Numbered from the stretch's first letter, positions 1,257 to 60,174 are shown. The stretch: DNA of 64,000 bases from Candidatus Magasanikiibacteriota bacterium (GCA_018661775.1 JABJHO010000014.1:42305-106304), one strand, 5' to 3'. Numbers and translations are program-made. The notes: a model not told the origin generated them from the sequence alone.

Positions 1257-2513
1257 TTATACGTTTTTTGTTTGGTCAGTATACAGAGGGAAATTTTTTG
1301 TAAGAGCCATAACGTCTTCCTTTATTTCTTTGAGCGTAGCTTCTTCTGTGTGATGAGTAATGGCTCGGTCAATAAGATCTGCAATAATGCCCATTTCTTT
1401 TTCTTTCATACCACGTGTTGTAAGTGCAGGGGTGCCAAGTCGTATACCAGATGGGTTAAATGGAGACCTGGTATCGTCTGGAATCATATTTTTGTTTACG
1501 GTAATACTGGCTTTGTCGAGTGCTTCTTCTGCATCTTTTCCTGTGAGACTTTTTGATGTTACGTCAATAAGGAGTAGGTGATTGTCGGTTCCACCAAAAC
1601 ATAAGTCATACTTCTTGGCTTGAAATGCTTCTTCTAGTATTTTTGTGTTTGCCTTAATCTGTTTGGCATATTGCTTAAACTCTGGCTCAAGTGCTTCTTT
1701 AAATGCGACTGCTTTGGCTGCAATATTATTTTCGTGCGGACCACCTTGTAGTCCAGGAAACACGGCCCTATCTATCTGTTTTGCAAATTCTTTTTTACAC
1801 ATGATCATGCCACCACGTGGCCCACGTAGTGTTTTGTGTGTGGTGGTGGTTACAATATCAAAAATTGGCACAGGATTGTTCATTTCTCCACCAGCAATAA
1901 GCCCGGCAATGTGTGCAATATCGGCCATAGTCATTGCACCAACTTCATTGGCAATATCTTGTATTTTGCTATATGCAATTTCTCTTGAATAGGCTGAATA
2001 GCCAACTAAAATAAGTTTCGGCTTGTGTTCGTGGGCCATTTTTCTGAGATTTTCTAGGTCTATTTGTCCGTTGGCATCAGTTTTGTATCGTTCAAAGTGA
2101 AATACCTGTGTCATGTGCGTTACCGGGTGACCATGTGTGAGATGGCCCCCATGAGACAAGTCCATACCCAGAACCGTGTCACCTGGTTTGAGTACCGCAA
2201 AATACGCAGCAATATTGGCAGGTGCACCAGACAGTGGTTGAACATTGACATGCTCTGCACCAAAAAGTTGTTTTGCACGATCTATTGCAAGTTGCTCAAT
2301 GGTATCCACATGTTCACATCCACCGTAATATCGCTTGCCTGGATACCCTTCGGCATATTTGTTTGTTAATACTGAGCCCAGCGCTTCAAGAACGGCTGGT
2401 GAGACAAAATTTTCTGAAGGAATCATTTCCAACCCAGTTTCTTGTCGGTTGAGTTCTTTGTGTATCGCTGTGTGTGTATCAATATCAAACTGTGCTAGTG
2501 ATATGTTATTCAT
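1257..2513 (-). CDS. glyA: Serine hydroxymethyltransferase
   Basis: 418 aa. Motifs LSHGGHLTHG and the PLP-lysine block TTTTHKTLRGPRGG. Confidence 0.97.
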   Translation of the reverse strand: MNNISLAQFDIDTHTAIHKELNRQETGLEMIPSENFVSPAVLEALGSVLTNKYAEGYPGKRYYGGCEHVDTIEQLAIDRAKQLFGAEHVNVQPLSGAPANIAAYFAVLKPGDTVLGMDLSHGGHLTHGHPVTHMTQVFHFERYKTDANGQIDLENLRKMAHEHKPKLILVGYSAYSREIAYSKIQDIANEVGAMTMADIAHIAGLIAGGEMNNPVPIFDIVTTTTHKTLRGPRGGMIMCKKEFAKQIDRAVFPGLQGGPHENNIAAKAVAFKEALEPEFKQYAKQIKANTKILEEAFQAKKYDLCFGGTDNHLLLIDVTSKSLTGKDAEEALDKASITVNKNMIPDDTRSPFNPSGIRLGTPALTTRGMKEKEMGIIADLIDRAITHHTEEATLKEIKEDVMALTKNFPLYTDQTKNV

Positions 2514-2548
2514 ATGCGTGTGGGTTAATACTGGGTAGATGTATGGTA

Positions 2549-4252
2549 TTATAACTTTTTTATCATATATGTGCCAACTTTTCTGTAACCAAGTTTTCTA
2601 TAATACCCACGAACACCAACACCCGAGATTACCGCACTTTTTTGTATTCCTGCGTTTTGTATTATTTCTTCGGCCACTTTCATGAGTTTTTTACCAAACC
2701 CTTTGTGTTGCGATGCCTGTTGTCTTTTTTCTCCAATTTTTACGAGCTGACCGTACACATGAAGTTCACGAATAAATGCACAGTGTGAAATTTCTGGGAT
2801 GATTTGTACAACATCTTTACAATGCGCTTTACTAAGCCATACATGTTGTTCTTTTTCCTTTTTGCCGATGTTGTGCGGGATACGGAGTCGTAGGAATCCA
2901 TACACAGCTATACGTTTTGGATCCTCAAGCGTAATAAAGTATTCTGTGCCACCTACTGTTGAGTATGTGTCTACAAAGAGCTGTGGTATCGTGTTTTTTG
3001 GTATATTGTCTTGCTGTCTTGAAATCTCTCTGCACCGCAAGCAGACACATCGCGCATTAGTGTTGTGTAGCTCTTTTGTGAGAGATTCTCGTAGGTTGGT
3101 TATACTGTTTCCGTCTCTAATTTCGTTAGATGGGATATCACGAATAAGTCGAGAAATTCTACAGTATCGTGGTGTAGCTTTTTTCATTGCAAGTAGTGCT
3201 GCAAACAATGCTTTTTCTCCGTATGATTTGTATCTTCCTTCCTTAAACCATGCATAGAGTTCAGCGCTTTCAATGACGGTGTTTGGATAAATCTTTACCA
3301 TGTCTGGGCAAAGTGCTGGATCAGAAAATAGTGATTTGTACATGGTTACATCGTGTTCTGGCGTGGTTCCTGGTAGGTCTGGCATAAAATGGAGATCAAC
3401 TTTGAACCCTGCACAGCGAAGCATATACATTGCTTTCCTGAATTCATCCACAGAGTGCCCACGCTTAATCAGTGATAAAATTGCATCATCTGGCGCCTGA
3501 AGACCAAGCTCTATTCTTGTGCATCCCTGTTTTCGCATGTGGTAGAGTGTTTTTGGTGTGATACAGTCTGGTCTTGTTTCAAGTGTAATTCCTATTATCC
3601 TATGTTTTGCATACTCATTGTACCGTTGTTCTTTTTCTATGCGTTGTGTCAACTCCTCAAGTGGCCGCTTTTCCCAGTACAACTCTTTTGTGGGGGGTAT
3701 TTCTTTTCTTCGTGTGAGGTTGTTGCATGCATTAAAAGACTCCATAATATACCAGTATTGGTATTTTAAGGTATAGGCATTCCATGTACCACCTTTTGTG
3801 ATGTATTCAATTTTATCTACCGGATGCCCATTCTTCTCAAGCATTTCAATCCTTTTTTGCATTAGAAGGTATGGGTTGAAATCGAGCTTGAGTGAGCGAG
3901 CTGCAGCAGGTTCTGAAGCAATATAGCTTTTTGGCATGCGTACTTCTGTTGGGCAGTAGACACACTTGCCTGGGCAAGCATATGGTTTTACTAGTGAAGT
4001 GATTACGGCAATCCCTGATGTACTTCGTATACCAGCTTTCATACATAATTGCTCTAATGCTCTATTTTGTACTACTTTCTTGTCTTTTACCAATTTCTTG
4101 TAGACACCAAGTATGGCCCTGTTTGAGGGTTGTGATATGTGAAGTGCACTACACTCCTTTCTTCGTATATCATCAAACTCACCTTTTGTTTTGGGCTTTT
4201 TTTGAATAATGGCATGTATGATCTGTGTAATGTGTTGTGTTGTTTCAGACAT
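2549..4252 (-). CDS. elp3: Elp3-like radical SAM / GNAT tRNA uridine(34) modification enzyme
   Basis: 567 aa. Radical-SAM CPGKCVYCP, GGTWNAY, and C-terminal GNAT block IRELHVYG..QHKGFGKKLM..GVRGYYRKLGY. Confidence 0.85.
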   Translation of the reverse strand: MSETTQHITQIIHAIIQKKPKTKGEFDDIRRKECSALHISQPSNRAILGVYKKLVKDKKVVQNRALEQLCMKAGIRSTSGIAVITSLVKPYACPGKCVYCPTEVRMPKSYIASEPAAARSLKLDFNPYLLMQKRIEMLEKNGHPVDKIEYITKGGTWNAYTLKYQYWYIMESFNACNNLTRRKEIPPTKELYWEKRPLEELTQRIEKEQRYNEYAKHRIIGITLETRPDCITPKTLYHMRKQGCTRIELGLQAPDDAILSLIKRGHSVDEFRKAMYMLRCAGFKVDLHFMPDLPGTTPEHDVTMYKSLFSDPALCPDMVKIYPNTVIESAELYAWFKEGRYKSYGEKALFAALLAMKKATPRYCRISRLIRDIPSNEIRDGNSITNLRESLTKELHNTNARCVCLRCREISRQQDNIPKNTIPQLFVDTYSTVGGTEYFITLEDPKRIAVYGFLRLRIPHNIGKKEKEQHVWLSKAHCKDVVQIIPEISHCAFIRELHVYGQLVKIGEKRQQASQHKGFGKKLMKVAEEIIQNAGIQKSAVISGVGVRGYYRKLGYRKVGTYMIKKL

Positions 4253-4310
4253 AGTACTTGTAATATAATCATGAATGTGCTATCTTAGTCAAGTCAAAAA
4301 GGATTATTTT

Positions 4311-5006
4311 ATGAATGAATATAGGGCAAAACAAATATTAGAGCAAAACCATGCGGTATATAACACCATCGCAGCGGATTTTTCACGAACCCGTGGATTT
4401 TTGTGGGCCGACCTACATCCGCTCAAGGAGTATGCAAAAGATGTGCACACCGTTGTTGATATTGGGTGTGGCAATGGTCGACTATATCAGCTTTTTTCTC
4501 ACATGGATGTGAATTATATCGGTATTGATTTTAGTGAAGAGCTTGTGGCTATTGCAAGGAATCGTTTTCCGGGGGCGCGGTTTTTTGTCTCAAACATGAT
4601 TAAAACTTCCTTACAAGACAGTATGGCCGATGTTATATACTGTATTGCAGCATTTCAGCATCTTCCAAGCAGAGAAATGCGTATCCAAGCACTTCAAGAG
4701 ATGCGCAGAGTGTTAAAGCCTGGTGGATCCATAGTTATGATGAATTGGAATCTTTTTAGTGACTGGGCACGAGAAAAATATGAAAGCGACGGGAGTGGAG
4801 ATTTTTTTGTACCTTGGAAAAATGAGGAAAAAGAGGTTTTGGGGTTGCGATACTACCATGGTTTTTTACTCGAAGAGCTTCATGAATTAGTACAGTCTGT
4901 TGGGCTAAATATAGTTAAACAACATTACTGTAAAAAAGGTGAAGTAAGTAGTCTGGGGCCTGGTGAAAATATACTTACCGTTATGCGAGCTGCCGAAGAT
5001 GTGTAG
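4311..5006 (+). CDS. Trm9/ALKBH8-like class I SAM-dependent methyltransferase
   Basis: ORF-track start is 4275. ATG 4311 is preferred because aaggA lies 7 nt upstream. Blocks VYNTIAADFSRTRGFLW, VVDIGCGNG, FFVPW and LRYYHGFLLEEL. Confidence 0.7.
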   Translation: MNEYRAKQILEQNHAVYNTIAADFSRTRGFLWADLHPLKEYAKDVHTVVDIGCGNGRLYQLFSHMDVNYIGIDFSEELVAIARNRFPGARFFVSNMIKTSLQDSMADVIYCIAAFQHLPSREMRIQALQEMRRVLKPGGSIVMMNWNLFSDWAREKYESDGSGDFFVPWKNEEKEVLGLRYYHGFLLEELHELVQSVGLNIVKQHYCKKGEVSSLGPGENILTVMRAAEDV

Positions 5007-5008
5007 CA

Positions 5009-5893
5009 TTATTTTCCTGAAATAATACAGGTGGTTGGAGTGGTAATACTCCAACCACTTTTTTTTGCTTTTATGAGCCCTGCAACACTTAATGCTTCAT
5101 TTGGTGTCACGGACTCTTGCAATTCATCTTCTAGTATTTTCTGTGCAGCCGCTATGTCTTCGTCGCTCACTATCCAGCCACTTCCCTTTGTTGTGTTCAC
5201 TATTTCTGTCACATTACTTTTTCTGTGTGCAATACGATCTCCGATGCACGTTGCAAGAGATTCTTTGGTTGGGGTAAAGTCATGGTCAAAATGTTTTGCG
5301 ATTGGGTAACATGCTGTGGTTTGTACAACATGTACTTGGGTCGGTAAGGAGTTGTGTGTAATGTATTCTCCGATACCTTGTGCGGTGGTACCAGAAGATG
5401 TGGCGATAAATATGGCACCCATATCGTTGTGTTGAGTAATCTCTCTTGCTAAGGGGTAGTATGATCGCGGCGCTAATCCATCGGTTGATTGTCGGAGATA
5501 TGCTACCCCAGCCTCTTTTCCGGCCATAAAAGCATTTTGTTTTGGCTGATCCACCTGTGTAATTGTAATATTTCTGTCGGTGGCAAGATGTGTGAGTGTG
5601 TCTTTTTTTTGCTGAGGTATTCTTTTACCAATATACACACCAAGCGAAAGCAGGTTATTTGGATGTTTGGTATTATGTTCTTTAATTGCTAAAATAGCTG
5701 CAATAGCAGCATTTCCGGTTGATGATATGGCAAACTTTTTCGTATCGTTTTGTGTATATTCCCGGTGTATCATTTCTGGAATGACCCGTCCTTTGTGTGA
5801 TTGGTATGGGCTAAGATCCTCTCTTTTAAGAAAAAGAGACGGGATGTTGAGTTGTTTTGCTAATTCTGGATGTGAAGATTGTGGAGTATTCAT
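5009..5893 (-). CDS. PLP-dependent enzyme, fold type II (TrpB/CysK/ThrC-like)
   Basis: 294 aa. LFLKREDLSPYQSHKGR (PLP-lysine context) and ISSTGNAAIAAI. Substrate not assignable. Confidence 0.55.
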   Translation of the reverse strand: MNTPQSSHPELAKQLNIPSLFLKREDLSPYQSHKGRVIPEMIHREYTQNDTKKFAISSTGNAAIAAILAIKEHNTKHPNNLLSLGVYIGKRIPQQKKDTLTHLATDRNITITQVDQPKQNAFMAGKEAGVAYLRQSTDGLAPRSYYPLAREITQHNDMGAIFIATSSGTTAQGIGEYITHNSLPTQVHVVQTTACYPIAKHFDHDFTPTKESLATCIGDRIAHRKSNVTEIVNTTKGSGWIVSDEDIAAAQKILEDELQESVTPNEALSVAGLIKAKKSGWSITTPTTCIISGK

Positions 5894-5976: not shown

Positions 5977-6141
5977 ATGAATCTTACCTGTATTGAGTGT
6001 AAAAATCAAGTTGATCTATCATCGTATTCTGACCTTGCTATGGACAGTGTGGTTGAGTGTCAGACGTGTGGCATAACATTGCTTGTGACGAGTATCGACG
6101 ATAACACCGTGTCTGTTGAAATAATGGACGAGGGAAAATAG
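5977..6141 (+). CDS. LysW-like zinc-ribbon protein (possible amino-group carrier)
   Basis: 54 aa from the internal ATG. Two CxxC knuckles (CIECKN..ECQTCG), ITLLV and an acidic tail EIMDEGK. Confidence 0.45.
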   Translation: MNLTCIECKNQVDLSSYSDLAMDSVVECQTCGITLLVTSIDDNTVSVEIMDEGK

Positions 6142-9399: not shown

Positions 9400-10176
9400 T
9401 TATGTTATTAATCTGCGAATTTCTAAGATTTTTGCGCTTTTTGCACGGCCAAATGTTTCATTTGCTTCACCTATTTTTTCATGCTCTTGCCAGGTCTGCT
9501 GTGATAGATCTTTTTTTGTGTCTGTAACGGTAATGTTTCCCTGTCTAATACCATGATTGTATTTTCCATCTGCAAGCCACGCAAGACTGTGTGTATAATG
9601 AATTATTTTCGGTGCACCACCTTCGTAGTCTACTTGGTGCACAATAAGTATATGGTCAAGATCATGTCGTTTTCCTGTATCAAGCATAATAATGCAATCT
9701 CCAGGTTCTATAGTGTTAAGAGAGATCGTTTGGCTGTTTTTGTTGTCTGCCAAAACACGTACATTTGTATTTTCAATGGTGCGGAATTTTCTCACAAGCC
9801 GTCTCAATAGATTGTTGGTTTTTGGAAATGACAAACGTGTGTGCAATGGTTTTGTTGTTTGTGCAATCGTTTGGGCGTTGAGAATGTAATACGCAAGCCC
9901 CGAGCAGTCAATACCAATAGCATGATCTACAAGAAATTTTTTTACCTCTGTCTGAGAAAGTGTCGTAAGGTCAATATGTTTTTTTCTTGCAATAATTTCT
10001 ATTTCTTGCACAATATCTTCTACGGAACCTTTTCCTAAGTGCACACGCAAACCTGCCCGAACCTTTGTCTTTTTATTGTTCATGTACGGGCAAGCAACTG
10101 TGTGTTTTCCAATGGGCATGTGCAGATATGCTTCAATAATATCCATTGCTGGTTTCACTATTTTTTTTGTTGTCAT
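9400..10176 (-). CDS. NlpC/P60-superfamily cysteine peptidase-like protein, no signal peptide
   Basis: 258 aa. Candidate catalytic Cys in GIDCSGLAYYIL and His in DHILIVHQV, with PGDCIIM between them. Confidence 0.4.
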   Translation of the reverse strand: MTTKKIVKPAMDIIEAYLHMPIGKHTVACPYMNNKKTKVRAGLRVHLGKGSVEDIVQEIEIIARKKHIDLTTLSQTEVKKFLVDHAIGIDCSGLAYYILNAQTIAQTTKPLHTRLSFPKTNNLLRRLVRKFRTIENTNVRVLADNKNSQTISLNTIEPGDCIIMLDTGKRHDLDHILIVHQVDYEGGAPKIIHYTHSLAWLADGKYNHGIRQGNITVTDTKKDLSQQTWQEHEKIGEANETFGRAKSAKILEIRRLIT

Positions 10177-11435
10177 AAAGCGTTTTCTATAATGGTTACA
10201 ATCTTTTTTCCGAGTGCATTATATACACCATGTTTTGTCATAATGCTTTCTTTAGACTGAATGCGTAACAGGTCAGACCCTAGTGTGGTGGTTGTGTACG
10301 GGATAACAGAGAGCCCAGCTTGCTCAAGTGCTTTTTTTGTTTGCGTTACGTCTATGTCTTGTGCGTCTTTTGTGAGCCTGAGAACAAGTTGTGCCCCACG
10401 TGTTACAGGAACAAGTTTGTGATCTTTTGTTTCAAGGTTTGCCAGTGCTGCGACATGCGCTTCAAACGTTGTCATGAGATTTTTTACCTGTTTTGCTATG
10501 GATTGTTGCTGTAAGTGTGATTCAAAAATAACAGAAGCTGGTTGCCTTGCATTAATCTCCAAAAGATATACGTTTCCTGTTTCTTCTTCTACGATAATGT
10601 CTATCCCAAAAGCCCCGCGCCATCCATCGTGTTGCATTTTTTTTCCAACTGCATGGGCTATTTCTTTACACTTCGCCTGTTGATCATATGAGAGTATGTC
10701 TTTTGGAAGACCCCAGTCATTGCCGATGGTGGCAAAAGGTTGGTCGGTAAAAGGAGAGAGCCCAGTAATTTGGTAACTCAATGATCCTGTGTGGATCGCA
10801 TCTTTTGAGACAACGCCGTTGCAAGTAAACGTGGGGCCGTTAATATAGGCCGACACTTTTACCGGTCTTTCGGGAAATGTTTTTTGGAGTTCTTGTAGTT
10901 GTATTTCGCTGTCTATTAATACTGTTCCACTTCCGGTGTGTCCCTGGTTAAATTGCAATACAAATGGTTCATAATTCCATGCAATGTTTTTGCATACATC
11001 TATGTGGTGAGGGGGAAGATGTGTAGTCATTGTACCAAGCCACGCAACTTGTGAAATTTTCTCTTCTATGTTGCTTGCTAGGTTGGTAAGCGGGTTAAGT
11101 AGTGGGATATTATGTGTCTTGCAAATCCGCTCTATTTTTTTTGTAGGTTTGTATACCATAATACCACCAAATGCGTTTTCACCACATTCTTTGGTTTTTT
11201 TTGCAATGTACGCGAGTGATTTTGGATGCTCAAGGAGTTGCCAAGAATCCAAAAGTGTAGTAGTGTCAATGAGTACAATGTGTGACCTTTCTTGGGCATA
11301 TGATTTGGCAAACTCGGTCACATTTGAGATAATAGAAAAATCAGAGATAGACATGTCCATCCCCGATGCTCGCTCAAAAGAGCGATTTACATATATAATG
11401 TGGTGATTTTTAAGCCACGTGAGTAATTTTTCCAT
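10173..11435 (-). CDS. ATP-grasp ligase of unknown substrate
   Basis: Start moved to ATG 11435 (MEKLLTW). The track start 11624 overlaps murB. C-terminal block WRGAFGIDIIVEEETGNVYLLEINARQPAS. The stop overlaps the next gene's start by 4 nt. Confidence 0.6.
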   Translation of the reverse strand: MEKLLTWLKNHHIIYVNRSFERASGMDMSISDFSIISNVTEFAKSYAQERSHIVLIDTTTLLDSWQLLEHPKSLAYIAKKTKECGENAFGGIMVYKPTKKIERICKTHNIPLLNPLTNLASNIEEKISQVAWLGTMTTHLPPHHIDVCKNIAWNYEPFVLQFNQGHTGSGTVLIDSEIQLQELQKTFPERPVKVSAYINGPTFTCNGVVSKDAIHTGSLSYQITGLSPFTDQPFATIGNDWGLPKDILSYDQQAKCKEIAHAVGKKMQHDGWRGAFGIDIIVEEETGNVYLLEINARQPASVIFESHLQQQSIAKQVKNLMTTFEAHVAALANLETKDHKLVPVTRGAQLVLRLTKDAQDIDVTQTKKALEQAGLSVIPYTTTTLGSDLLRIQSKESIMTKHGVYNALGKKIVTIIENAL

Positions 11436-11489
11436 ATTTAGGCTTAGTATAGTAAAAAAAGCCGTTTTTTGCAACCTTTGATATATTTT

Positions 11490-12449
11490 ATGGATCCATT
11501 TTATACACAACTCAAAACCTACGGAAAAGTGCGATGTAATGAATCTTTGGCAAAGCATATTACGTATAAGATTGGTGGCCCTGCCAAGTATTTTGTGATT
11601 GTAAAAGATATGTCCCATCTCCAAGCGCTTTTGCAGTTTATTGACGGAGAAGGGGTAAAACGTATTATCTTGGGTGGAGGAAGTAATATATTATTTCCAG
11701 ATGAAGGTTTTGATGGGGTGGTAATACAGATTATTGATAAGACGTTCTCGATTTCTGGTCCCAAGGTGGAGGCAGTTGCAAGTGCACTGATGAAAGATAT
11801 TTCTGAGGCAACTGTTGCCGCAGGTTTGGCGGGTTTTGTTTGGGCAATTGGTGTTCCTGGAACTATAGCAGGTGCGTTGCGAGGTAATGCTGCGTATAAT
11901 GGGGTTGCAATGGGGGATGCTGTGTCCAGTGTGGAGGTGTACAGAGATGGAGAGGTGGTGCTGTTATCAAACCATGATTGTGTGTTTGGTCCAAAAGATT
12001 CAGTGTTTAAGCATAACAATGATGTGATTTTGCGTATTTGGCTTGCATTAAAAAAAGGAGAGAAGCAAAAGATTGCTCAAGAGGCAATGGAGAATATTTC
12101 ATATAGACAACGCACTCAGCCAGAAGGTAAAGGTTCAGCGGGTTGTGTATTTAAGAACATAGTTGTTGAAGAAAAAGATGTGGATAATTTTTTGGCAAAA
12201 TTTAATGATAAAAAAATACAGGAATGTATTACAAAATATCATAAAATTCCTGTTGGCCGTTTAATTGAATTACTTGGACTAAAGGGGACTGTTTCTGGGA
12301 ATGCACAGATTTCTGAGGTGCATGGTAATTTTGTGATTAATTTGGGCGGTGCAAGTGCAAAAGATGTGTGCATCTTAATTGAACTTATACGGGAAAACGT
12401 GTACAATACCTATGGGTTTGAATTAGAGGAGGAAATTCAAATTGTTTAA
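11490..12449 (+). CDS. murB: UDP-N-acetylenolpyruvoylglucosamine reductase
   Basis: ESLAKHITYKIGGPAKYF, ILGGGSNILF and GSAGCVFKN blocks. Confidence 0.85.
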   Translation: MDPFYTQLKTYGKVRCNESLAKHITYKIGGPAKYFVIVKDMSHLQALLQFIDGEGVKRIILGGGSNILFPDEGFDGVVIQIIDKTFSISGPKVEAVASALMKDISEATVAAGLAGFVWAIGVPGTIAGALRGNAAYNGVAMGDAVSSVEVYRDGEVVLLSNHDCVFGPKDSVFKHNNDVILRIWLALKKGEKQKIAQEAMENISYRQRTQPEGKGSAGCVFKNIVVEEKDVDNFLAKFNDKKIQECITKYHKIPVGRLIELLGLKGTVSGNAQISEVHGNFVINLGGASAKDVCILIELIRENVYNTYGFELEEEIQIV

Positions 12450-15817: not shown

Positions 15818-17854
15818 ATGAACAATCAAGAAGGGACAAAGCGCGTAAGAATGCGTTGGGGAATGGTAAGTATTACTATTTGTTTTTTGGCTATGCTCGG
15901 GTTTATATTCCCGAAGTATACAAATGTTGCTATTAACAATATTAATTCTTTGGCATATCTAGGATTACCAAACATATCGGAAGAGTCTTTTCGGTTGGGT
16001 CTAGATTTGCAAGGCGGTGCACATTTAATATATGAGGCAGACGTACAACACGTGGCAATCGAAGATCGTGCAACTGCAGTAGAAGGTGTGCGAGATGCGG
16101 TTGAGCGCCGAGTAAACGGGACGGGAGTTTCTGAACCAAATGTCCAAACAGCGCGTGTGGGTGAGGCATATAGGCTTATTGTTGATCTTCCAGGTATTGA
16201 AAATGTAAATGAAGCAATAAAACTTATAGGGGAGACACCGGTGCTAGAATTTAAGGAAGAAAATGATGTACCATCAAGGGAGCTTAATGAAGAAGAGAGA
16301 GAGTTAATAACACAAACAAATAGTACAGCAAAATCACGTTCAGAGGAGATAGCAGCCCGAGTGGCAGGTGGTGAGTCTTTTGAAGAGCTTGTTTCTGAGC
16401 TTTCTGAAGACACGATCACAAAAAATAATGGAGGGAGTTTGGGAAATGTTGAGGCAGGTCTGAGTATAACAGGCCCACTTTATGATTGGGCGAAGACTCA
16501 TGTGGATGGGGACATTTCTGAAACACCAATAGAAACAGAGCTGGGATATCACGTTGTAAAGCGCGGGAAAGATGGTGAGTCAAAAGAAAAAGTTTCAGCG
16601 AGCCATATACTAATCTGTTATTTTGGTGCACAGGGTTGTGAAGATGAAACATACACAAAAGAGTCGGCACTAGAAAAAGCACAAGAACTTTTTACTCAAG
16701 CAAATGCTGAAAATTTTGCTGATTTAGCAAAAGAATTTTCTACTGGACCAAGTAAGGGTGCGGGTGGGGACCTTGGTTCTTTTGGGCGCGGTATGATGAT
16801 ACCTGCGTTTGAAGAGGTAGTGTTTTCTGCAGAAGTGGGACAAATTGTAGGGCCAGTTGAAACTGATTTTGGGTATCATGTGATTTATAAGACCGATGTG
16901 GAGGAGGTTGCAACGTATGGCCTTGCTCATATTATGAGTAAAAAGCTAACAGAAAGAGAAGTTCTCCCACCGCAGGATTCATGGAAATCAACAGAGCTTT
17001 CCGGAAAACAACTTGAGCGGGCGGACGTTGCTATTGATCCGCAAACAGGTGCCGTACAAGTTTCTCTTGTTTTTGATAAGGAAGGAAAAAAACTATTTGA
17101 AGATATTACACGAAGAAACCTTAATAAACCTGTTGCAATCTTTTTAGATGGCTCTCCTATTAGTATACCAACAGTTCAGGCCGTCATCGGTGGAGGGGAG
17201 GCGGTGATTACTGGATCATTTACCATTCCAGAAGCAAAACTTTTATCTCAAAGACTTAATACGGGTGCATTACCTGTTCCTATTACTCTTGTATCCCAGC
17301 AGGCTATTGGTGCAAGTTTGGGGGCCGAATCACTGGTAAAGAGTTTGCATGCCGGAATAATTGCTATTATATTGGTAATGCTCTTTATGGTTCTGTATTA
17401 TAGATTACCAGGGGTACTGGCAGTTATTTCTTTAAGCATATATATTGTTGCTGCACTTGCTATTTTTAAATTAATAGGCGTGACATTGACACTAGCTGGA
17501 ATTGCTGGATTTATCCTCTCTATTGGTATGGCGGTTGATGCAAATGTACTGATTTTTGAAAGAATGAAGGAGGAGCTGCGCGAAGGGAAGAGTTTGAAAG
17601 TTGCGGTGGAAGAAGGGTTTGTGCGTGCGTGGACATCTATACGAGATGGAAATATTTCAACACTTATTACCTGTGTATTGTTGGTTGGGTTTGGTGCAAG
17701 TTTTGTTCAGGGGTTTGCTGCAACATTGTCAATTGGTATTTTATTGAGCATGTTTTCGGCGATTACCATTACACGATTGTTTTTGCGTGCAATAGTGCCA
17801 CTATTTTCTCGGTACGGCAATAGACTCTTTTTAGGATTTACTGAAAAAAAATAA
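15818..17854 (+). CDS. secD: Protein translocase subunit SecD with an inserted parvulin-type PPIase region
   Basis: 678 aa. SecD blocks LGLDLQGGAHL, VSEPNVQ and the C-terminal 6-TM core, with a PpiC-like segment (residues ~258-360) in the periplasmic P1 domain. Confidence 0.9.
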   Translation: MNNQEGTKRVRMRWGMVSITICFLAMLGFIFPKYTNVAINNINSLAYLGLPNISEESFRLGLDLQGGAHLIYEADVQHVAIEDRATAVEGVRDAVERRVNGTGVSEPNVQTARVGEAYRLIVDLPGIENVNEAIKLIGETPVLEFKEENDVPSRELNEEERELITQTNSTAKSRSEEIAARVAGGESFEELVSELSEDTITKNNGGSLGNVEAGLSITGPLYDWAKTHVDGDISETPIETELGYHVVKRGKDGESKEKVSASHILICYFGAQGCEDETYTKESALEKAQELFTQANAENFADLAKEFSTGPSKGAGGDLGSFGRGMMIPAFEEVVFSAEVGQIVGPVETDFGYHVIYKTDVEEVATYGLAHIMSKKLTEREVLPPQDSWKSTELSGKQLERADVAIDPQTGAVQVSLVFDKEGKKLFEDITRRNLNKPVAIFLDGSPISIPTVQAVIGGGEAVITGSFTIPEAKLLSQRLNTGALPVPITLVSQQAIGASLGAESLVKSLHAGIIAIILVMLFMVLYYRLPGVLAVISLSIYIVAALAIFKLIGVTLTLAGIAGFILSIGMAVDANVLIFERMKEELREGKSLKVAVEEGFVRAWTSIRDGNISTLITCVLLVGFGASFVQGFAATLSIGILLSMFSAITITRLFLRAIVPLFSRYGNRLFLGFTEKK

Positions 17855-18852: not shown

Positions 18853-19014
18853 ATGACAGACAATTTTATTCGTCATCTTATAGCATTTCTTGTGGTGCTT
18901 ATTTGTCTTATTATTTTTAGTGTTGGATATATGTCCGGAATACGAGGTTGGTGGTTTTCTGGCTTTACTCTTTTGTTTGTGTACATAATTATCTACAAAC
19001 TTGTTGATGTGTAA
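18853..19014 (+). CDS. Small two-helix membrane protein (53 aa), not in the ORF track
   Basis: ATG 18853. Translation MTDNFIRHLIAFLVVLICLIIFSVGYMSGIRGWWFSGFTLLFVYIIIYKLVDV*. The TAA stop lies one nucleotide before the next ATG. Confidence 0.45.
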   Translation: MTDNFIRHLIAFLVVLICLIIFSVGYMSGIRGWWFSGFTLLFVYIIIYKLVDV

Positions 19015-19015
19015 T

Positions 19016-20434
19016 ATGGAAGTAGTCCCTTTATTAAACATATCATCTATTCTAGGAGCCATAGGCAGTAATCCTATGGAAGTTTTTGTGTCAATATTTA
19101 TTTTTTTTGGATACGCCATACTATTTTATACTTTGTGCAAGGCAGTGCTTGAACTATATGTAGATTATAGGCAAAAAAAAAATACACAATCTTGGAATTT
19201 TGTTGTTTTGGCAATAGATATTCCTCCAATGAATATTCAAACCCCAAAAGCGGTTGAACAATTGTTTGCGCATTTGGCGGGTATTTTTAGTAAGCCAAAT
19301 ATTGCTGCAAAATTCCGTGGTGGCCATGTACAGAGGTCTTTTAGTTTTGAAATAGTGAGTATTGACGGATATATACAATTTCTTGTGCATACAGAAGAAG
19401 AGTACAGGGAACTTGTTGAGGCTGCGCTCTATGCGCAATACCCTAACGCTGAAATTACACAAGTAGAAGATTATGTGCAGAAGATTCCAGATAGGTATCC
19501 TCATGAAGAATATGATATTTGGGCTACAGATATTGGATTGGCCGAACACAGTGCATATCCAATTCGGATGTATTCTGATTTTGAACACAAAAACTCGGAA
19601 GAAGAGGTGTTAAAAGATCCAATGAGTGCTTTGCTCGAGAGCTTTTCTCGCATAGGGTCTGGTGAACAGATCTGGTTGCAAATAATAGTAGAGCCAATAT
19701 CGAGTAAGTGGAAAGAAGATGTTATCGAAAAAATCAATGAAGTGTTGGGTAATGTTTCGGTTTCCGGGGCTGGGCCAGGTTCACGTTTTTTTTCCTCTAT
19801 TTCAACAATAATAGGGCAGTTGTTTTTTCATATTTTTGGAGGAGAAGAGACTGCCACTTCGGCTGATACCAGGTCAGAGATATCTTCAGGTTTGTCTCCA
19901 GGCGTCTCTAATGCTGTTCAAGGCATGGAAGAAAAAATGACAAAGGTTGGTTTAAAAACTAACATGCGTGCGGTGTATATAGGAAGAAAGGATAACTTTT
20001 CACCTCAGCGTGGTATCAATGCACTTTTAGGGTCTTTGAATCAGTTTAGTATACCCACAGCCAATGCTATTGTTCCTACGTATGGTGTTTCAACATCATA
20101 TTTTAAGGCAGAAAAGCGTAGTAACCAGAAAAAGAATGTATTAATGGAGCATTATAAAAAAAGAAAAATCAGTATTAAAAAAGGACCCAAACCATATATT
20201 TTAAATGTTGAGGAGCTTGCAAGTATTTGGCATTTCCCACTTTCACATGTAAAAACACCGCTATTACAGGTTGTGGCCTCAAAACCTTCTGAACCACCAG
20301 TTGGTTTGCCAATAGAAATGAGCAGTGGTATGGGTGGTTCTTCACAGGGAGTCGATCTTTCTGGTGTTTTTCTCCCTAAGGAGGGTGAACCAGATGCATA
20401 TAGTGGGCCACCGCCAAACCTACCTTTTGGGTAG
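19016..20434 (+). CDS. Membrane-anchored protein of unknown function (472 aa)
   Basis: ATG 19016 is preferred over the TTG at 19001. One N-terminal TM helix, a large soluble body, and a Gly/Pro-rich tail. No family signature I can name with confidence. Confidence 0.6.
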   Translation: MEVVPLLNISSILGAIGSNPMEVFVSIFIFFGYAILFYTLCKAVLELYVDYRQKKNTQSWNFVVLAIDIPPMNIQTPKAVEQLFAHLAGIFSKPNIAAKFRGGHVQRSFSFEIVSIDGYIQFLVHTEEEYRELVEAALYAQYPNAEITQVEDYVQKIPDRYPHEEYDIWATDIGLAEHSAYPIRMYSDFEHKNSEEEVLKDPMSALLESFSRIGSGEQIWLQIIVEPISSKWKEDVIEKINEVLGNVSVSGAGPGSRFFSSISTIIGQLFFHIFGGEETATSADTRSEISSGLSPGVSNAVQGMEEKMTKVGLKTNMRAVYIGRKDNFSPQRGINALLGSLNQFSIPTANAIVPTYGVSTSYFKAEKRSNQKKNVLMEHYKKRKISIKKGPKPYILNVEELASIWHFPLSHVKTPLLQVVASKPSEPPVGLPIEMSSGMGGSSQGVDLSGVFLPKEGEPDAYSGPPPNLPFG

Positions 20435-26915: not shown

Positions 26916-28082
26916 TTATTCTTTATACACTATATTTAGGTGTGAATATTTTTGCTCCATAATGACCAAATCTTCTTCTGAAAATTTATTTCTATCAATC
27001 AGTACTTTGCCCGTAACAATATCAGGTAGAACTAGCCCATCTGTTGTCGTGAGACCCAAGAGTATGAGATCGCCATCGATTGTTTTTGGAAAAGTAACAC
27101 CTTCTGCTGATTTAAGTTCCCATGTTACTATACTTCCTATGATGGTTTCAGGTAATAGTATGTTGGTGGCTTTCTCTAGGTTGAAAAGATGTATACTTCC
27201 TATTAAGGTTTTTGGAAATTGCACAGTATGTGCTGTCTTGAGTCGATCCATAGAAATGAGCCCATTAACACCGTCTTGTGGAAATACTACATTATGAACT
27301 GACTCAAGACCAATTAAGTTTAACTTACCATGTACTGTTTTGGGAAATTCTAGTCCATCTATTTCAGTGAGTGAAGACATACAAAGACTACCATTAACAG
27401 TTTCGGGTAGTACTAACTTTTCTGTGGAAAGGAGGTAGAATAGCAGAAGATCGCCATGTATTATTTTTGGGAGCGTAAGTGTTTTTGCAGATGTTACTTG
27501 TAGTTGAAGGTCACCATTTACTATTTCTGGACATGTTATCCTTTTGTCTTCATCAATGCGTTCGGGACTAAGGTTGCCATAGTGGTATTTTATTTTACCT
27601 TTCAAAATGGTATTTTCTAAAAAGTTTTTATTTTTGGTTTCTGTGTAAGAGCTTATCTGATCCTCTGTGAAACCAGTAAGTCGAGATATATCCTCTTTAA
27701 AATTATGGATGTCTATAGGAAAATTACGATATGTAGTATCAAGACTAAACGGACCTTTGCCTTCTTTAAAACCCGTCACACCCCCGCTGTTGTTGTATAT
27801 TATGTGTAAATCATTTATTGGTGTGTCTTTAGTAATTCTATCACCATTAATTTTTTTCTTTATTTCTTGAATACGTTGTGTTTTTTTTGCCACTTTCTCC
27901 CATCTTTTTAGTTTAAGTCGTAAGAATGAAGATGTATTAAATACCTGCTCTATGTTTCTTTTTCGTTCTCGTATATTTTCGATATCACCACCTGATTCAA
28001 TAAGAGTCTTAAATTCTTCTAATTTTAGGTTTTGCATTGCTTTTAGCATTTTTTTTATGTCTCTACACTCTTCTTGAGCCAT
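26916..28082 (-). CDS. Repeat protein: coiled-coil N-terminus plus nine ~21-aa LRR-like repeats
   Basis: 388 aa. The Pro of the (L/F)P(K/E)T(I/V)xGxLxL unit recurs at residues 185, 205, 226, 247, 268, 290, 311, 332 and 353. No signal peptide. Confidence 0.7.
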   Translation of the reverse strand: MAQEECRDIKKMLKAMQNLKLEEFKTLIESGGDIENIRERKRNIEQVFNTSSFLRLKLKRWEKVAKKTQRIQEIKKKINGDRITKDTPINDLHIIYNNSGGVTGFKEGKGPFSLDTTYRNFPIDIHNFKEDISRLTGFTEDQISSYTETKNKNFLENTILKGKIKYHYGNLSPERIDEDKRITCPEIVNGDLQLQVTSAKTLTLPKIIHGDLLLFYLLSTEKLVLPETVNGSLCMSSLTEIDGLEFPKTVHGKLNLIGLESVHNVVFPQDGVNGLISMDRLKTAHTVQFPKTLIGSIHLFNLEKATNILLPETIIGSIVTWELKSAEGVTFPKTIDGDLILLGLTTTDGLVLPDIVTGKVLIDRNKFSEEDLVIMEQKYSHLNIVYKE

Positions 28083-44884: not shown

Positions 44885-47254
44885 ATGAATACATTAAAAA
44901 AAGCTAACATCCCAACAGTTATTGTCGTCTTTGGTGCGACAGGAGATTTGATGGAGAAAAAAATTGCTCCATCTCTTTTGCATTTGTACAAAAATGGTAA
45001 GTTGCCAACTCAGTTTAAGATTGTCGGCGTTGCCAGGAAAAGTAATAGCGATGGTCAGTTTCAGAAATTAGTTGGGGATCATTTAAAAAAACATTCTAAG
45101 CAACATCCATCAAAAGAAAAGTTTAAAAAGTTTTTGGATTATTTTACTTATCAATCAGGCCAGTTTCAAGAACCCAAGACTTATAGCGAGCTTAGTAAAA
45201 AACTTAAGCAGATAGATGATGAGTGGGGAGTATGTACTAATAAGCTTTTTTATCTAGCAGTCCCGCCAAAGTTTTATCAAACTATATTTAATAATTTATC
45301 AGCTTCTGGACTGACTAAGCCTTGTAGTGAGGAAGAGGGTTGGACTAGAGTATTAGTTGAAAAGCCATTTGGCAGTGATTTAAAAACAGCCAAAGAATTA
45401 GAAGAGGTGTTGGGTAAGCTCTTTAGAGAGGAACAGATTTTTAGAATTGATCATTACTTGGCTAAAGAAATGCTGCAAAATATTTTGGCTGTTAGGTTTT
45501 CTAATAATTTATTTGAACAAACTTTTAATAATCGGTTTATTGATAGCATTGAATTATACTTACATGAAAAGAAAGGGGCCGAAGGTCGCGGTAGTTTTTA
45601 TGATAGCGTTGGAACCCTAAAAGATGTTGGCCAAAATCATTTGTTGCAGATGTTGGCTCTTGTCACTATGGATATGCCACAAAGTTATAATGCTAAACAT
45701 ATTCGTGACAAGAGGTATGAATTAATGAAACATTTAATTCCATTGAAAAAATCCGAGATGAGCACCAATACTTTTAGAGCTCAATACGAAGGATATACTC
45801 AGGTAGAGGGCGTTAATGCAAAATCAAAAACAGAAACATTTTTTAAACTGCAGTGCTTCTTAAATCATCCAAGGTGGCGAGATGTACCTATTACTATTGA
45901 AAGTGGTAAGGGTATGGCTGCACCTAAAAAAGGTATTGCTTTGAATTTAAAACACACTATGCCATGTTTGTGCCCTAAAGGCTCAGAGCATTATCGTAAT
46001 AAGATAATTCTTACTATGGAACCAGAAGAGGGTATTACAATTGAATTCTGGGCCAAGAAACCGGGATTTCAGTGGCAGATAGAAAAGAAAGAGTTGAAGT
46101 CTTTTTATCGTAAGAATGCCAAGCAGGCTCAGTATACAGAAGAGTATGAAAAACTTTTATTCGATTGTATTGTCGGGGATCAAACTTTATTTGTTAGCAC
46201 TAAAGAGGTCCTTGCAATGTGGAAGTTTATTGATCCAATTGTTAAAGCCTGGGAAAGTAAAATAGTGTCACTAGAAAAATATAAAAAAGGATCGAAGACT
46301 ATTTCTACTTCTGTAAAGTTTAGTTCAACTAAAGTTAAAGATGCAGGACAAATGCCTTTAGAAATTGGAATTGTTGGTCTTGGTAAAATGGGTGGTGGTC
46401 TTGCTAGGCAGTTATTAGAAAAAGGCTGGAAGATTCATGGTTATAACAGGAGCCCAGAGGAGACACGTAAATTAAAAAAAGATGGATTAATTCCAGAATT
46501 TAGCTTAGAGGATATGGTAAAGAATCTACCATCACCAAAGATTGTTTGGCTAATGGTTCCTTCTGGTAAGCCAGTTGATGAAAATATTAATAAGCTAGCA
46601 AAGCTTTTGGGTAAAGGGGATTATATTATTGATGGGGGTAATTCTTTTTTCCAAAATACTGTCAAACGATCTCGTAAAGTTACGGCTAAGAAAATTAATT
46701 TTATGGATTGTGGTGTGTCTGGAGGTCCCGAGGGAGCGCGCCACGGGGCTTGTTTGATGATTGGTGGTAAAAAAGTTGATTATGATTTCTTAAAGCCTTT
46801 GTATTCTGATTTGGCTATTCATCAAGGCGAAGAATTTTTCCCTGGTTATGGAGCTGGCCATTTTGTAAAGATGGTTCATAATGGTATTGAATATGGCATG
46901 ATGCAGTCTATTGCTGAAGGATTTGCGATTATGAGAAAATCAAAATATAAATTACACTTGCGTAAAATTGCAGAGGTTTATAACCATGGTAGTGTAATTG
47001 AATCTAGTTTGATCAATTGGATGGGAAATGCTTTTGCCTTATTTGGCGATGATTTAAAAGGTGTGTCTGGTAGAGCCTCACATAGTGGCGAAGGGCTTTG
47101 GACAACACAGGTAGCGCATTCTTTGGGAATATCCGATAAGGTTATTCACGAGTCACTAAAAGCTAGAGAGAGAAGCCAGAAAAAACCAAGTTACCAAGGT
47201 AAGATTATTCAGGCTTTAAGAAATCAGTTTGGCGGACATAATTTAAAAAAATAA
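44885..47254 (+). CDS. Fused glucose-6-phosphate dehydrogenase / 6-phosphogluconate dehydrogenase (decarboxylating, short form)
   Basis: 789 aa single ORF. G6PD blocks are GATGDLMEKK, EKPFG and RIDHYLAKE. From about residue 485 come IGIVGLGKMGGGLA, IDGGNS, GVSGGPEGARHG and FVKMVHNGIEYGMMQ (Gnd-like). Confidence 0.85.
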   Translation: MNTLKKANIPTVIVVFGATGDLMEKKIAPSLLHLYKNGKLPTQFKIVGVARKSNSDGQFQKLVGDHLKKHSKQHPSKEKFKKFLDYFTYQSGQFQEPKTYSELSKKLKQIDDEWGVCTNKLFYLAVPPKFYQTIFNNLSASGLTKPCSEEEGWTRVLVEKPFGSDLKTAKELEEVLGKLFREEQIFRIDHYLAKEMLQNILAVRFSNNLFEQTFNNRFIDSIELYLHEKKGAEGRGSFYDSVGTLKDVGQNHLLQMLALVTMDMPQSYNAKHIRDKRYELMKHLIPLKKSEMSTNTFRAQYEGYTQVEGVNAKSKTETFFKLQCFLNHPRWRDVPITIESGKGMAAPKKGIALNLKHTMPCLCPKGSEHYRNKIILTMEPEEGITIEFWAKKPGFQWQIEKKELKSFYRKNAKQAQYTEEYEKLLFDCIVGDQTLFVSTKEVLAMWKFIDPIVKAWESKIVSLEKYKKGSKTISTSVKFSSTKVKDAGQMPLEIGIVGLGKMGGGLARQLLEKGWKIHGYNRSPEETRKLKKDGLIPEFSLEDMVKNLPSPKIVWLMVPSGKPVDENINKLAKLLGKGDYIIDGGNSFFQNTVKRSRKVTAKKINFMDCGVSGGPEGARHGACLMIGGKKVDYDFLKPLYSDLAIHQGEEFFPGYGAGHFVKMVHNGIEYGMMQSIAEGFAIMRKSKYKLHLRKIAEVYNHGSVIESSLINWMGNAFALFGDDLKGVSGRASHSGEGLWTTQVAHSLGISDKVIHESLKARERSQKKPSYQGKIIQALRNQFGGHNLKK

Positions 47255-58803: not shown

Positions 58804-60174
58804 ATGAGTGAGCATGACCATGGCCCAGAAAATCAGAGCCCTCAAGGGTATGTTGACGAATTATTATCTGGCAAAAAAGAAACAGGCGACCCAACACAAT
58901 TAGCATTATTGGCTCAATTGTCTCAAACAGCACAGCAGATAAAGTTAGTTACTTCCACATGTGCGGAATCACAGCATAAAATTGCCATGATCAAGGATCT
59001 ACAATCTCTTGTTGCTGAGGCATCTAAGCAATTCCCAAACCTTTCTTTTCGTGTAGAAGCATTATCTGAAGAAAAAGTTGCGGAACTACAGTTTAAAATT
59101 GCAGTGATAAGCGATCTGCGATCACGTGTTTTTGATGCGTCTAAGCAGTTTTACGATCTTTCCTTTTCTTCGGTAGAAATTTTGTCTGAGGAGTTGGGTA
59201 TTCTAAACAAGTTTGCGATCGAGGGTGGTGCGTTACCAAGCAATGAGCAGGTAATTAAGTTACCAGATAAAGATGATTTTGAGGATTTGCCAGAAATGGA
59301 AGTGTTTTTTGCAGAAGAAATGGAAGTGTTTTCTGGGGATATGCCAAAAAAAGCACTTGAACTTGTCAATATACAAGAGGATGCGGACGAGTATGTTTTT
59401 GATAGCACAGAAGACACGTTTTCTTTGTACAAAAAAGACACGCCCCATCGTATTCATGGATTTATTGATGCGGTTGCTGGTTTACCCAAGTATGATGGAC
59501 ACGGGGCACCTTCTTTGGAAGAGTGTGGATATTTTACACAAGAGGTGGTGATGGTGTATCTAACACCAGACAAAGAGATTGAGCCGGATGTGCACTTTTT
59601 GACCATCGCACGTATTATTGGGCTTATTGGAGATGGGTTTGTATTTGGTATGACCCAAAAAACACAGTTGTTTCATCTTTTGTCAGCCCTTGCTGCACAG
59701 TTAAAGATATTTGACGCTATAGGTAGTGTGGGTATAAATAAAGATGATTTTGAAAAAATTAAGACGCTGTGTTTTGGTATTGTAGGTGGGGCACAAAGTG
59801 AAACTGCGTGTGGTTATGTGTTTGGATTATGTCGTTCCCATGTGCCAGGAGGTGAAGGTATTATTGGGGATACATGGGAAGAGATTCTCTCATACCATGG
59901 TTCTTATTTGCAAGTGAAAGAACCGGTAGTGGTTGTGCATTTTTCTGATGCTGACCGTGCGTTTCAAGACGCACTTCTTGATGCAGATGATTCGAGCAAC
60001 GCTATTAGAGAATTGTTTAGGGCAGAGCTCAATAGTTCACGGTTTTATACCAAAGCTGGTATTCCACCAACGGTTGGTTTTTTGGCAAAGTCGTATATAC
60101 AACATCTTAGTGGTACAAGTTTTAAGGATTTACGACACGCTGCCAAGACACAAGAGTATATCTTTGAAACATAA
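58804..60174 (+). CDS. Acidic protein of unknown function with internal repeats
   Basis: 456 aa. Strong SD aaggagga. A 39-aa tandem repeat (residues 58-91 vs 97-131) and an EMEVF(F/S) duplication. No family recognised. Confidence 0.65.
   Translation: MSEHDHGPENQSPQGYVDELLSGKKETGDPTQLALLAQLSQTAQQIKLVTSTCAESQHKIAMIKDLQSLVAEASKQFPNLSFRVEALSEEKVAELQFKIAVISDLRSRVFDASKQFYDLSFSSVEILSEELGILNKFAIEGGALPSNEQVIKLPDKDDFEDLPEMEVFFAEEMEVFSGDMPKKALELVNIQEDADEYVFDSTEDTFSLYKKDTPHRIHGFIDAVAGLPKYDGHGAPSLEECGYFTQEVVMVYLTPDKEIEPDVHFLTIARIIGLIGDGFVFGMTQKTQLFHLLSALAAQLKIFDAIGSVGINKDDFEKIKTLCFGIVGGAQSETACGYVFGLCRSHVPGGEGIIGDTWEEILSYHGSYLQVKEPVVVVHFSDADRAFQDALLDADDSSNAIRELFRAELNSSRFYTKAGIPPTVGFLAKSYIQHLSGTSFKDLRHAAKTQEYIFET

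Follow-up and report, generated by a model that had tools for sequence, protein, structure and literature searches.

A conserved divergent gene pair encoding Elp3 and a Trm9-type methyltransferase as a candidate wobble-uridine modification module in Patescibacteria

The 64-kb stretch of a Candidatus Magasanikiibacteriota genome analysed here (JABJHO010000014.1:42305-106304, 64,000 nucleotides; hereafter the window) is ordinary bacterial chromosome of ~39% G+C that carries, head to head, genes for the radical-SAM/GNAT tRNA wobble-uridine carboxymethyl synthase Elp3 and for a class I S-adenosylmethionine (SAM)-dependent methyltransferase that appears to belong to the Trm9 family. Formation of 5-carboxymethyluridine (cm5U) by Elp3 and its conversion by Trm9 to 5-methoxycarbonylmethyluridine (mcm5U) is the textbook eukaryotic pathway, and mcm5U-type wobble modification is usually taught as a property of eukaryotes and a few archaea. 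Both open reading frames (ORFs) lie where a sequence-only reading of the window had placed them (2549..4252 on the minus strand and 4275..5006 on the plus strand), and its divergent start codons, 22–58 nt apart, were reproduced. The elp3 gene (2549..4252, minus strand) encodes 567 residues between an ATG start and a TAA stop; the methyltransferase gene (4311..5006, plus strand) encodes 231 residues in a frame that is open from 4275 (243 residues), such that the gap between the two start codons measures 58 nt if translation begins at 4311 and 22 nt if it begins at 4275. The former is likelier because a ribosome-binding-like AAGGA motif occurs 8 nt before this ATG, in the 58-nt divergent intergenic region (4253..4310), because a database protein (P0001) that is 100% identical to the window methyltransferase has 231 residues, and because aligned homologues start at the Met of ATG 4311. 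A promoter-consensus scan of 2300-5300 returned 10 sites compared to 7.7 expected from shuffled sequence, with no excess, and therefore no promoter is claimed in the intergenic region. The short region shared by the two genes suggests coordinated expression of the pair.

From its sequence, the minus-strand ORF is a full-length Elp3, for which tRNA-dependent acetyl-CoA hydrolysis and formation of cm5U at position 34 are predicted. It passes the curated NCBIfam model TIGR01211 (483.9 bits; cutoff 350), with residues 11–567 corresponding to positions 2–522 of the 522 in the model, and contains the Pfam domains Radical_SAM, Radical_SAM_C and GNAT. Its best matches in the Protein Data Bank (PDB) are archaeal MinElp3 (6ia8, 5e-102), Dehalococcoides Elp3 (5l7j, 3e-97), and eukaryotic Elp3 (~1e-77); tRNA-dependent activity has been demonstrated for close solved homologues (PMC6367351). 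The motifs quoted in the sequence-only reading are all present in the translation. Specifically, the radical-SAM iron-sulfur motif CPGKCVYCP (CX3CX2C; residues 93–101, 3950..3976, minus strand) is kept in 119/120 close homologues, and the acetyl-CoA motif Q/RxxGxG (here QHKGFGKKL) in all 120. The latter belongs to a C-terminal GNAT/lysine acetyltransferase (KAT) domain for acetyl-CoA (2570..2773, minus strand; Pfam Acetyltransf_1/10/7, residues 513–561), which includes the blocks IRELHVYG (494–501) and QHKGFGKKLM (515–524), with GVRGYYRKLGY at 546–556. In addition, a cysteine cluster, CVCLRCRE (residues 402–409, 3026..3049, minus strand), is found in 120/120 homologues within the stretch that joins the radical-SAM domain to the acetyltransferase domain, where zinc-binding cysteines of the prokaryote type have been described (PMC6367351). 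MinElp3 itself reads CPHGKCIFC, with one residue more between its first two cysteines than the CX3CX2C of the Patescibacteria Elp3.

Like DmcElp3 (Dehalococcoides mccartyi, 5L7J), the window Elp3 is a stand-alone bacterial enzyme that combines radical-SAM and KAT domains with zinc cysteines. Its match to archaeal MinElp3 scores slightly higher, and its N terminus carries a net basic extension (residues 1–75, 4028..4252, minus strand), with 15 Lys and Arg versus 7 Asp and Glu. To our knowledge, DmcElp3 does not have such an extension. Alignment to MinElp3 begins at residue 38 of the window protein; an N-terminal extension is typical of archaeal and eukaryotic Elp3, and matters for tRNA binding in MinElp3 (PMC6367351). 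The same source describes the stand-alone Elp3 of Dehalococcoides as a rare bacterial example, and a 2026 paper refers to Elp3 in ‘numerous bacteria’. The statement of the sequence-only reading that bacterial Elp3 homologues are sporadic does not hold within Patescibacteria, where, as opposed to the rare case of DmcElp3, the protein is common: the annotation pipeline PGAP names Elp3 in many metagenome-assembled genomes of this group, and the elp3 gene by itself is therefore not new there. The nearest named relatives of both Elp3 and the methyltransferase come from Candidatus Magasanikbacteria and other Patescibacteria, which makes the host a bacterium of the candidate phyla radiation rather than an archaeon. 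No mention of a Trm9 partner for DmcElp3 was found in the literature searched.

For the methyltransferase, curated hidden Markov models could not settle the family because its Pfam and NCBIfam matches are generic or sub-threshold. Pfam returned only the generic Methyltransf_11/25/12/31/23 and a weak Ubie_methyltran match, and all NCBIfam matches (DVU_1556, CpaM, Tam, UbiE, BioC, CmoM, and others) fall 100–300 bits under cutoff, as illustrated by UbiE (44.5 bits against a cutoff of 216), BioC (42.6 against 185), Tam (46.1 against 297), and CmoM (23.9 against 366). The profile comparison that the sequence-only reading had proposed for the two proteins thus gave full support for Elp3; for the methyltransferase no specific model emerged, though Trm9 is its best solved relative. 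A phmmer search of the PDB places YlTrm9 from Yarrowia (5cm2_Z) first (E 1.2e-15, 61 bits; next match E 3.3e-10, 43 bits), as does the profile of a 29-member family alignment (3.9e-30, 107.8 bits; next match 1.2e-22, 83.3 bits), which aligns to chain residues 2–195 of 205; this PDB ranking served as a stand-in for a reciprocal-best-hit comparison with the proteins of yeast. The AlphaFold2 model of the enzyme (pLDDT 95.7) has a Rossmann-type order of strands and helices, and Foldseek again ranks 5cm2_Z first (E 1.8e-17, TM-score 0.83 on the target, 26% identity), followed by 3sm3 (E 9.9e-17). By sequence, profile and Foldseek, then, the nearest solved relative of the methyltransferase is Yarrowia Trm9. 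Since the fold was treated as non-discriminating, the family call rests on residues and gene context. Automatic KO-based names from JGI label many homologues TRM9 or ALKBH8, and some JGI records carry the name ‘UbiE’; one homologue (P0042, 375 residues) has an extra NUDIX hydrolase domain (PF00293), and is an apparent fusion protein.

The residue evidence draws on published mutagenesis of Saccharomyces cerevisiae Trm9 (ScTrm9), in which conserved residues around the SAM methyl group were substituted (Létoquart et al., PMC4678810). The variants R29A, D72A, H116A, W145A, W168A, R241A, Y243A, and N271A were inactive or strongly impaired, R29A retaining ~5% activity and D72A losing SAM binding, and H24A, K31A, H115A, R122A, E148A, Q149A, and D270A were wild-type-like in an in vivo zymocin assay; Y18 was modelled in contact with the cm5U carboxylate (PMC4678810). 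To locate these positions, the YlTrm9 chain sequence was rebuilt from the printed alignment and added to the 29-member family alignment. The equivalents of R29, D72, H116, W145, W168, R241, and N271 are invariant (29/29), and that of Y243 is Tyr in 23/29 members; by comparison, the equivalents of mutation-tolerant H115, Q149, and D270 vary, with Gln at the H115 position of the window protein. In the window enzyme, these residues are distributed over three segments of the plus strand: an N-terminal helix with the motif HAVYNTIAADFSRTR (4350..4394), containing Y17 (ScTrm9 Y18), which is nearly invariant in the family, and invariant R28 (ScTrm9 R29); the SAM-binding motif I VVDIGCGNG with acidic D73 (IGIDFS; ScTrm9 D72, Asp in 29/29) in the region matched by Pfam Methyltransf_11/25 (4452..4535); and, from the family alignment, a substrate pocket (4644..4982) of H117, W146, W169, R180, Y182, and N220 (ScTrm9 H116, W145, W168, R241, Y243, and N271). 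The other blocks that the sequence-only reading had likened to a Trm9/ALKBH8 signature (IAAFQHL, FFVPW, and LRYYHGF) are also found in the translation. As controls, the three PDB entries that rank next after Trm9, all without this signature, were compared: the generic methyltransferases 1ve3 and 5wp5 align over the Rossmann core only, with Thr or Tyr at the W145 position, and 3sm3 aligns over its full length with Ser, Phe, a gap, and Phe at the H116, W145, W168, and R241 positions. Of all the evidence, this residue pattern speaks most strongly for a pocket that would accept the substrate of Trm9. The second-ranked Foldseek match, 3sm3 (Methanosarcina mazei Q8PUK2), is itself an uncharacterised archaeal methyltransferase without the Trm9 catalytic signature.

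Gene context was evaluated by running the family alignment against GTDB representatives, with a single genome for each species. Relatives are encoded at no fewer than 439 loci, from which the best 80 were taken with 10-kb flanks, and Elp3 was located on these by tblastn with the window protein; four loci with no Elp3 but <1.8 kb of upstream sequence were left out, leaving 76 that are evaluable. The sample comprises 58 loci labelled as candidate phyla radiation (CPR), 8 unclassified, and 14 with gammaproteobacterial labels, and their methyltransferases are 31–69% identical to that of the window. The CPR lineages represented are Magasanik-, Kuenen-, Berkel-, Kerfeld-, Falkow-, Nealson-, Buchanan-, Komeili-, Peregrini-, Peri-, and Gracilibacteria, together with Parcubacteria/Paceibacterota, Saccharibacteria, and the ‘Patescibacteria group’. 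Elp3 is encoded on the same locus in 72/76 cases, and is upstream and divergent in 69/76; the divergent arrangement, whose conservation the sequence-only reading had proposed to test, is thus strongly conserved in related genomes. The aligned gene ends are <400 nt apart at 58 loci (median ~55 nt), and divergent but 425–2872 nt apart at 11, with another arrangement at the remaining 3. When all ORFs within –6/+4.5 kb were clustered across 81 loci (window included), the only families common to the loci were the methyltransferase (81/81) and Elp3 (72), the next real neighbours being GlyA (24/81) and a Mur ligase (22/81). The adjacency of Elp3 and the methyltransferase is not due to chance, since it recurs in 72/76 loci at low sequence identity while the flanking genes are not conserved. 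All seven invariant residues are kept in 56 of the 80 loci, with individual counts of 78 (R29), 77 (H116), 79 (W145), 67 (W168, plus 11 with Phe), 73 (R241), and 76 (N271); loci without all seven mostly show the conservative Trp-to-Phe change at W168, or an apparent Arg-to-Leu change in a gapped, possibly misaligned region.

Two features of this sample deserve separate mention. The loci with gammaproteobacterial-type labels (Gammaproteobacteria, Pseudomonadales, and Lysobacteraceae; L003, L005, L006, L007, L016, L018, L027, L034, L035, L039, L042, L053, L054, and L070) encode Elp3 and methyltransferase proteins that group among those of Patescibacteria, and L003 and L005 share the Magasanikbacteria-type gene order of the window; the labels look unreliable, or the contigs may be mis-binned. 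The commonest third neighbour, GlyA (1257-2513 in the window, minus strand), adjoins Elp3 in 24/81 loci (~30%). It was considered as a functional partner and set aside, as the chemistry of Elp3 involves acetyl-CoA rather than folate one-carbon units and the linkage holds in a minority of loci; this is probably a lineage-specific gene order and not a functional link.

Trm9 of eukaryotes and Haloferax has as its partner the small zinc-knuckle protein Trm112 (PMC4678810, PMC6144793, PMC5372719), and the sequence-only reading had noted no such gene adjacent to the pair. This observation was correct for the window and for the 80 related loci. No Trm112 was detected in the window by six-frame motif scans and Pfam scans of small ORFs (including PF03966), and neither a Trm112-like gene nor any small ORF is conserved near the pair across the 81 loci. 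Applied to ORFs near the pair at those loci, a published signature of small Trm112 proteins retrieved nothing but the LysW-like zinc ribbon of four close relatives and a single unrelated ORF. The zinc-ribbon ORF of the window (5977-6141) was rejected as a Trm112 because it passes the LysW model and is found beside the methyltransferase in four close relatives only; genes located inside the 11 split pairs were also rejected, as they have no Trm112 signature and by eye are of membrane/permease type or unrelated. The surface of YlTrm9 that is buried by Trm112 includes six hydrophobic positions. At the V59 position, 27/29 family members have a polar or charged residue (Lys or Arg in 61/80 loci), and at the F78 position 29/29 do; the P112 equivalent is often Gln or Glu, A110 is replaced by Pro, and V102 and F116 stay hydrophobic. 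Such a surface fits a methyltransferase that needs no Trm112 but is no proof of one; the enzyme probably works without this activator, which is the weakest step of our explanation.

Taken together, profiles, residues and synteny support the coupled two-step Elp3-to-Trm9 pathway that the sequence-only reading had proposed, and we consider it probable (roughly three chances in four) that the pair is a functional U34 modification module of the Elp3-to-Trm9 type in a Patescibacteria (Magasanikbacteria-like) chromosome. Judging from family membership, Elp3 alone, without other Elongator subunits, would carboxymethylate U34 at C5 to give cm5U, using its radical-SAM iron-sulfur cluster and acetyl-CoA bound in the GNAT domain. 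The Trm9-family enzyme, which appears to carry the Arg/His/Trp/Asn pocket that positions cm5U in yeast Trm9, would then use SAM to methyl-esterify the cm5U carboxylate, yielding mcm5U34. More tentatively, Patescibacteria may have adopted an archaeal/eukaryote-type two-gene module, with a Trm9 freed of Trm112, that makes mcm5U (perhaps its 2-thio derivative mcm5s2U) and possibly replaces MnmE/MnmG; this broader scenario is conceivable, though we would not favour it. Genes for mnmE, mnmG, mnmA, and Ncs6/TtuA-type proteins were not detected among the scanned ORFs of the window (including all those of at least ~220 residues, bar MraY-like and MurB-like ones), a result from 64 kb that tells little about the genome as a whole.

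The proposed module can be compared with several known systems. The fungal Trm9-Trm112 enzymes (S. cerevisiae and Y. lipolytica, 5CM2) and animal ALKBH8-TRMT112 are likewise class I SAM methyltransferases and provide the top sequence, profile and Foldseek match, with further likeness in the conserved N-terminal H.VY..IA..FS.TR helix and mutagenesis-defined essential residues of fungal Trm9, and in a functional tie to Elp3, here through conserved gene adjacency. In contrast to fungal Trm9, the window enzyme is bacterial, has no Trm112 nearby, and is polar or charged at 2/6 hydrophobic Trm112-contact positions; presumably it also lacks the long lysine-rich insertion of ScTrm9, and it is without the AlkB and RRM domains of ALKBH8. 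In archaea, the Elp3-Trm9 pathway is supported for Haloferax, and clustering of the two genes has been noted in Sulfolobus solfataricus (PMC6144793, PMC5372719), with convincing Trm9 orthologues only in Sulfolobales and Halobacteriales according to a 2017 review (PMC5372719). Compared by published description, these systems (Haloferax volcanii HVO_1032 with Trm112, and the Sulfolobus cluster) also combine Elp3 without Elongator subunits and a Trm9 orthologue; HvoTrm9 differs in being a Trm112 partner, and the Patescibacteria pair in spanning many lineages in a fixed divergent arrangement. The bacterial MnmE-MnmG system (with MnmC), which leads to 5-carboxymethylaminomethyl- and 5-methylaminomethyluridine (cmnm5U/mnm5U34), acts on the same target, C5 of the wobble uridine, with the same presumed decoding role, but through unrelated enzymes and chemistry (a GTPase and a flavin adenine dinucleotide enzyme, methylenetetrahydrofolate, and glycine). 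CmoM, which converts uridine 5-oxyacetic acid (cmo5U) to its methyl ester (mcmo5U), is similarly a bacterial class I methyltransferase that esterifies a U34 side-chain carboxyl; however, the window enzyme scores far below the CmoM cutoff, and CmoM functions in the CmoA/CmoB pathway with no link to Elp3. Full-text literature searches returned nothing linking Elp3, Elongator or Trm9 to CPR/Patescibacteria, and likewise nothing for MnmE/MnmG. The 2017 review, from a Trm112 structural-biology group, stated that there are no bacterial genes resembling Trm112-dependent methyltransferases (PMC5372719).

Several observations weigh against a functional module of this kind. The methyltransferase is only 26–29% identical to Trm9, its Pfam matches are generic, and no Trm9-specific curated model is among its Pfam or NCBIfam matches. 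The window contains no gene for a U34 tRNA (its sole tRNAs are Ser-GGA and Ser-CGA), and the 80 loci are the best of the 439 or more, with distant family members outside the sample. Moreover, four of the 76 evaluable loci have no Elp3 within 10 kb and yet keep all catalytic residues. These four loci, together with the low identity, would fit a Trm9-family paralogue with another substrate (a different carboxylate or nucleoside, on tRNA or elsewhere), or an Elp3 product that is processed otherwise, for example to 5-carbamoylmethyluridine (ncm5U), with the linkage to elp3 reflecting co-regulation of translation-related genes and not successive steps; some of the Elp3 product in yeast reaches ncm5U by a route that does not involve Trm9 (PMC6367351). 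We regard this alternative as improbable. The equivalents of R29, H116, R241, N271, and W145, modelled as contacts to the cm5U carboxylate or uracil ring, are invariant while tolerant positions drift, and a changed substrate is therefore hard to reconcile with the family; in addition, the pair stays divergent and adjacent across lineages with differing neighbours. The generic annotation can also be read to mean that the methyltransferase is a UbiE/SmtA/BioC-type small-molecule enzyme that adjoins Elp3 by chance, as the Pfam families, the best NCBIfam matches (DVU_1556, CpaM, Tam, UbiE, and BioC), and some of the JGI names would suggest. Here, every such model lies 100–300 bits under its cutoff, with Trm9 as the best characterised relative; the UbiE/SmtA-type rival, which the sequence-only reading had named as a contrary outcome, fails in these comparisons. 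Beyond the SAM-binding core, the residues specific to Trm9 do not vary across the 29-member alignment and are missing from 1ve3, 5wp5, and 3sm3, and Elp3 adjoins the methyltransferase at 72/76 loci compared to at most 24/81 for other neighbours. A generic small-molecule enzyme is accordingly a highly improbable reading, effectively refuted by the synteny and residue data.

The closest competitor keeps the same pathway and differs in the role of Trm112: the methyltransferase would be Trm112-dependent, as in eukaryotes and Haloferax, with a small zinc-knuckle partner encoded elsewhere in the genome. Such a gene could exist beyond the sequence in view, which amounts to 64 kb of this genome and ~20 kb or less of each related one; orthologues of Trm112 occur widely among bacteria, where their role is not known (PMC5372719). 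Eukaryotic Trm9 is soluble and active only when co-expressed with Trm112, and HvoTrm9 is a validated Trm112 partner (PMC4678810, PMC6144793). At the interface itself, the hydrophobic character of the Trm112-contact positions is largely retained, or lost only in part, at four of six, which likewise counts against a Trm112-free enzyme, and the equivalents of V102, F116, and D117 keep their character. On the other hand, no Trm112 gene is present in the window or conserved near a pair that is tightly linked across 81 loci, and nearly every family member has a polar or charged residue at the V59 and F78 positions. On balance, dependence on a distant Trm112 appears rather unlikely, and a two-gene Elp3-Trm9 module is the reading that we retain.

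What is new here would be a phylum-wide bacterial Elp3-Trm9 pair, in which both enzymes are of known kinds and the absence of Trm112 is a plausible twist. The Patescibacteria, a large bacterial group, thus probably make a tRNA modification that is usually considered non-bacterial. If so, mcm5U chemistry extends to a very large bacterial radiation, and the pair offers a two-protein minimal mcm5U route for biochemistry and heterologous installation, as well as a natural experiment on why Trm9 elsewhere depends on Trm112. The pair is also relevant to whether CPR bacteria and archaea have exchanged genes of the translation apparatus or inherited them from a common ancestor, and hundreds of genes labelled ‘class I SAM-dependent methyltransferase’ or ‘UbiE’ could be given more precise names.

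The pair is flanked on one side by an amino-acid-kinase-family gene, TsaE, and GlyA, and on the other by a pyridoxal phosphate (PLP)-dependent enzyme, the LysW-like zinc ribbon, a Mur ligase, and an MraY-like ORF (the last recognised by eye). Just past the methyltransferase stop codon, and within the 3′ end of the convergent gene for the PLP enzyme, a hairpin with a 14-bp stem is followed by a T-run (5029-5060, plus strand), with a shorter matching hairpin on the minus strand; this may be a terminator embedded in coding sequence. More distant genes of the window encode SecA, SecDF, Dus, DnaG, RpoD, PilM, a prepilin peptidase, LigA, GatCA, Lgt, RsmH, a ClpB-like ATPase, L21, and DnaB. Three ORFs have no Pfam match at E ≤ 0.01 (19001-20434, plus strand, 477 residues; 26916-28082, minus strand, 388 residues; and 58804-60174, plus strand, 456 residues). 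In the SecD/SecF-family protein (15818-17854, plus strand), the N-terminal periplasmic part contains an inserted peptidyl-prolyl isomerase (rotamase) domain of the PPIC type (residues 253–360). A single 789-residue ORF (44885-47254, plus strand) encodes a fusion of glucose-6-phosphate dehydrogenase (both its N- and C-terminal domains) with 6-phosphogluconate dehydrogenase.

The zinc ribbon (5977-6141, plus strand, 54 residues) matches the LysW carrier-protein model PF21344 at 30.7 bits (cutoff 27), and the same protein is encoded at L002 (13842-14006), L003 (12877-13041), L004 (11845-12009), and L005 (5905-6141). Its tail is conserved as ...(I/V)DEGK, compared to EDWGE in canonical LysW. The gene lies 84 nt from the divergent PLP-dependent enzyme gene (5009-5893, minus strand), with Mur-ligase-like, ATE_C-like and ATP-grasp (10173-11624) genes nearby, and this neighbourhood may represent an amino-group-carrier-like system in a CPR bacterium.

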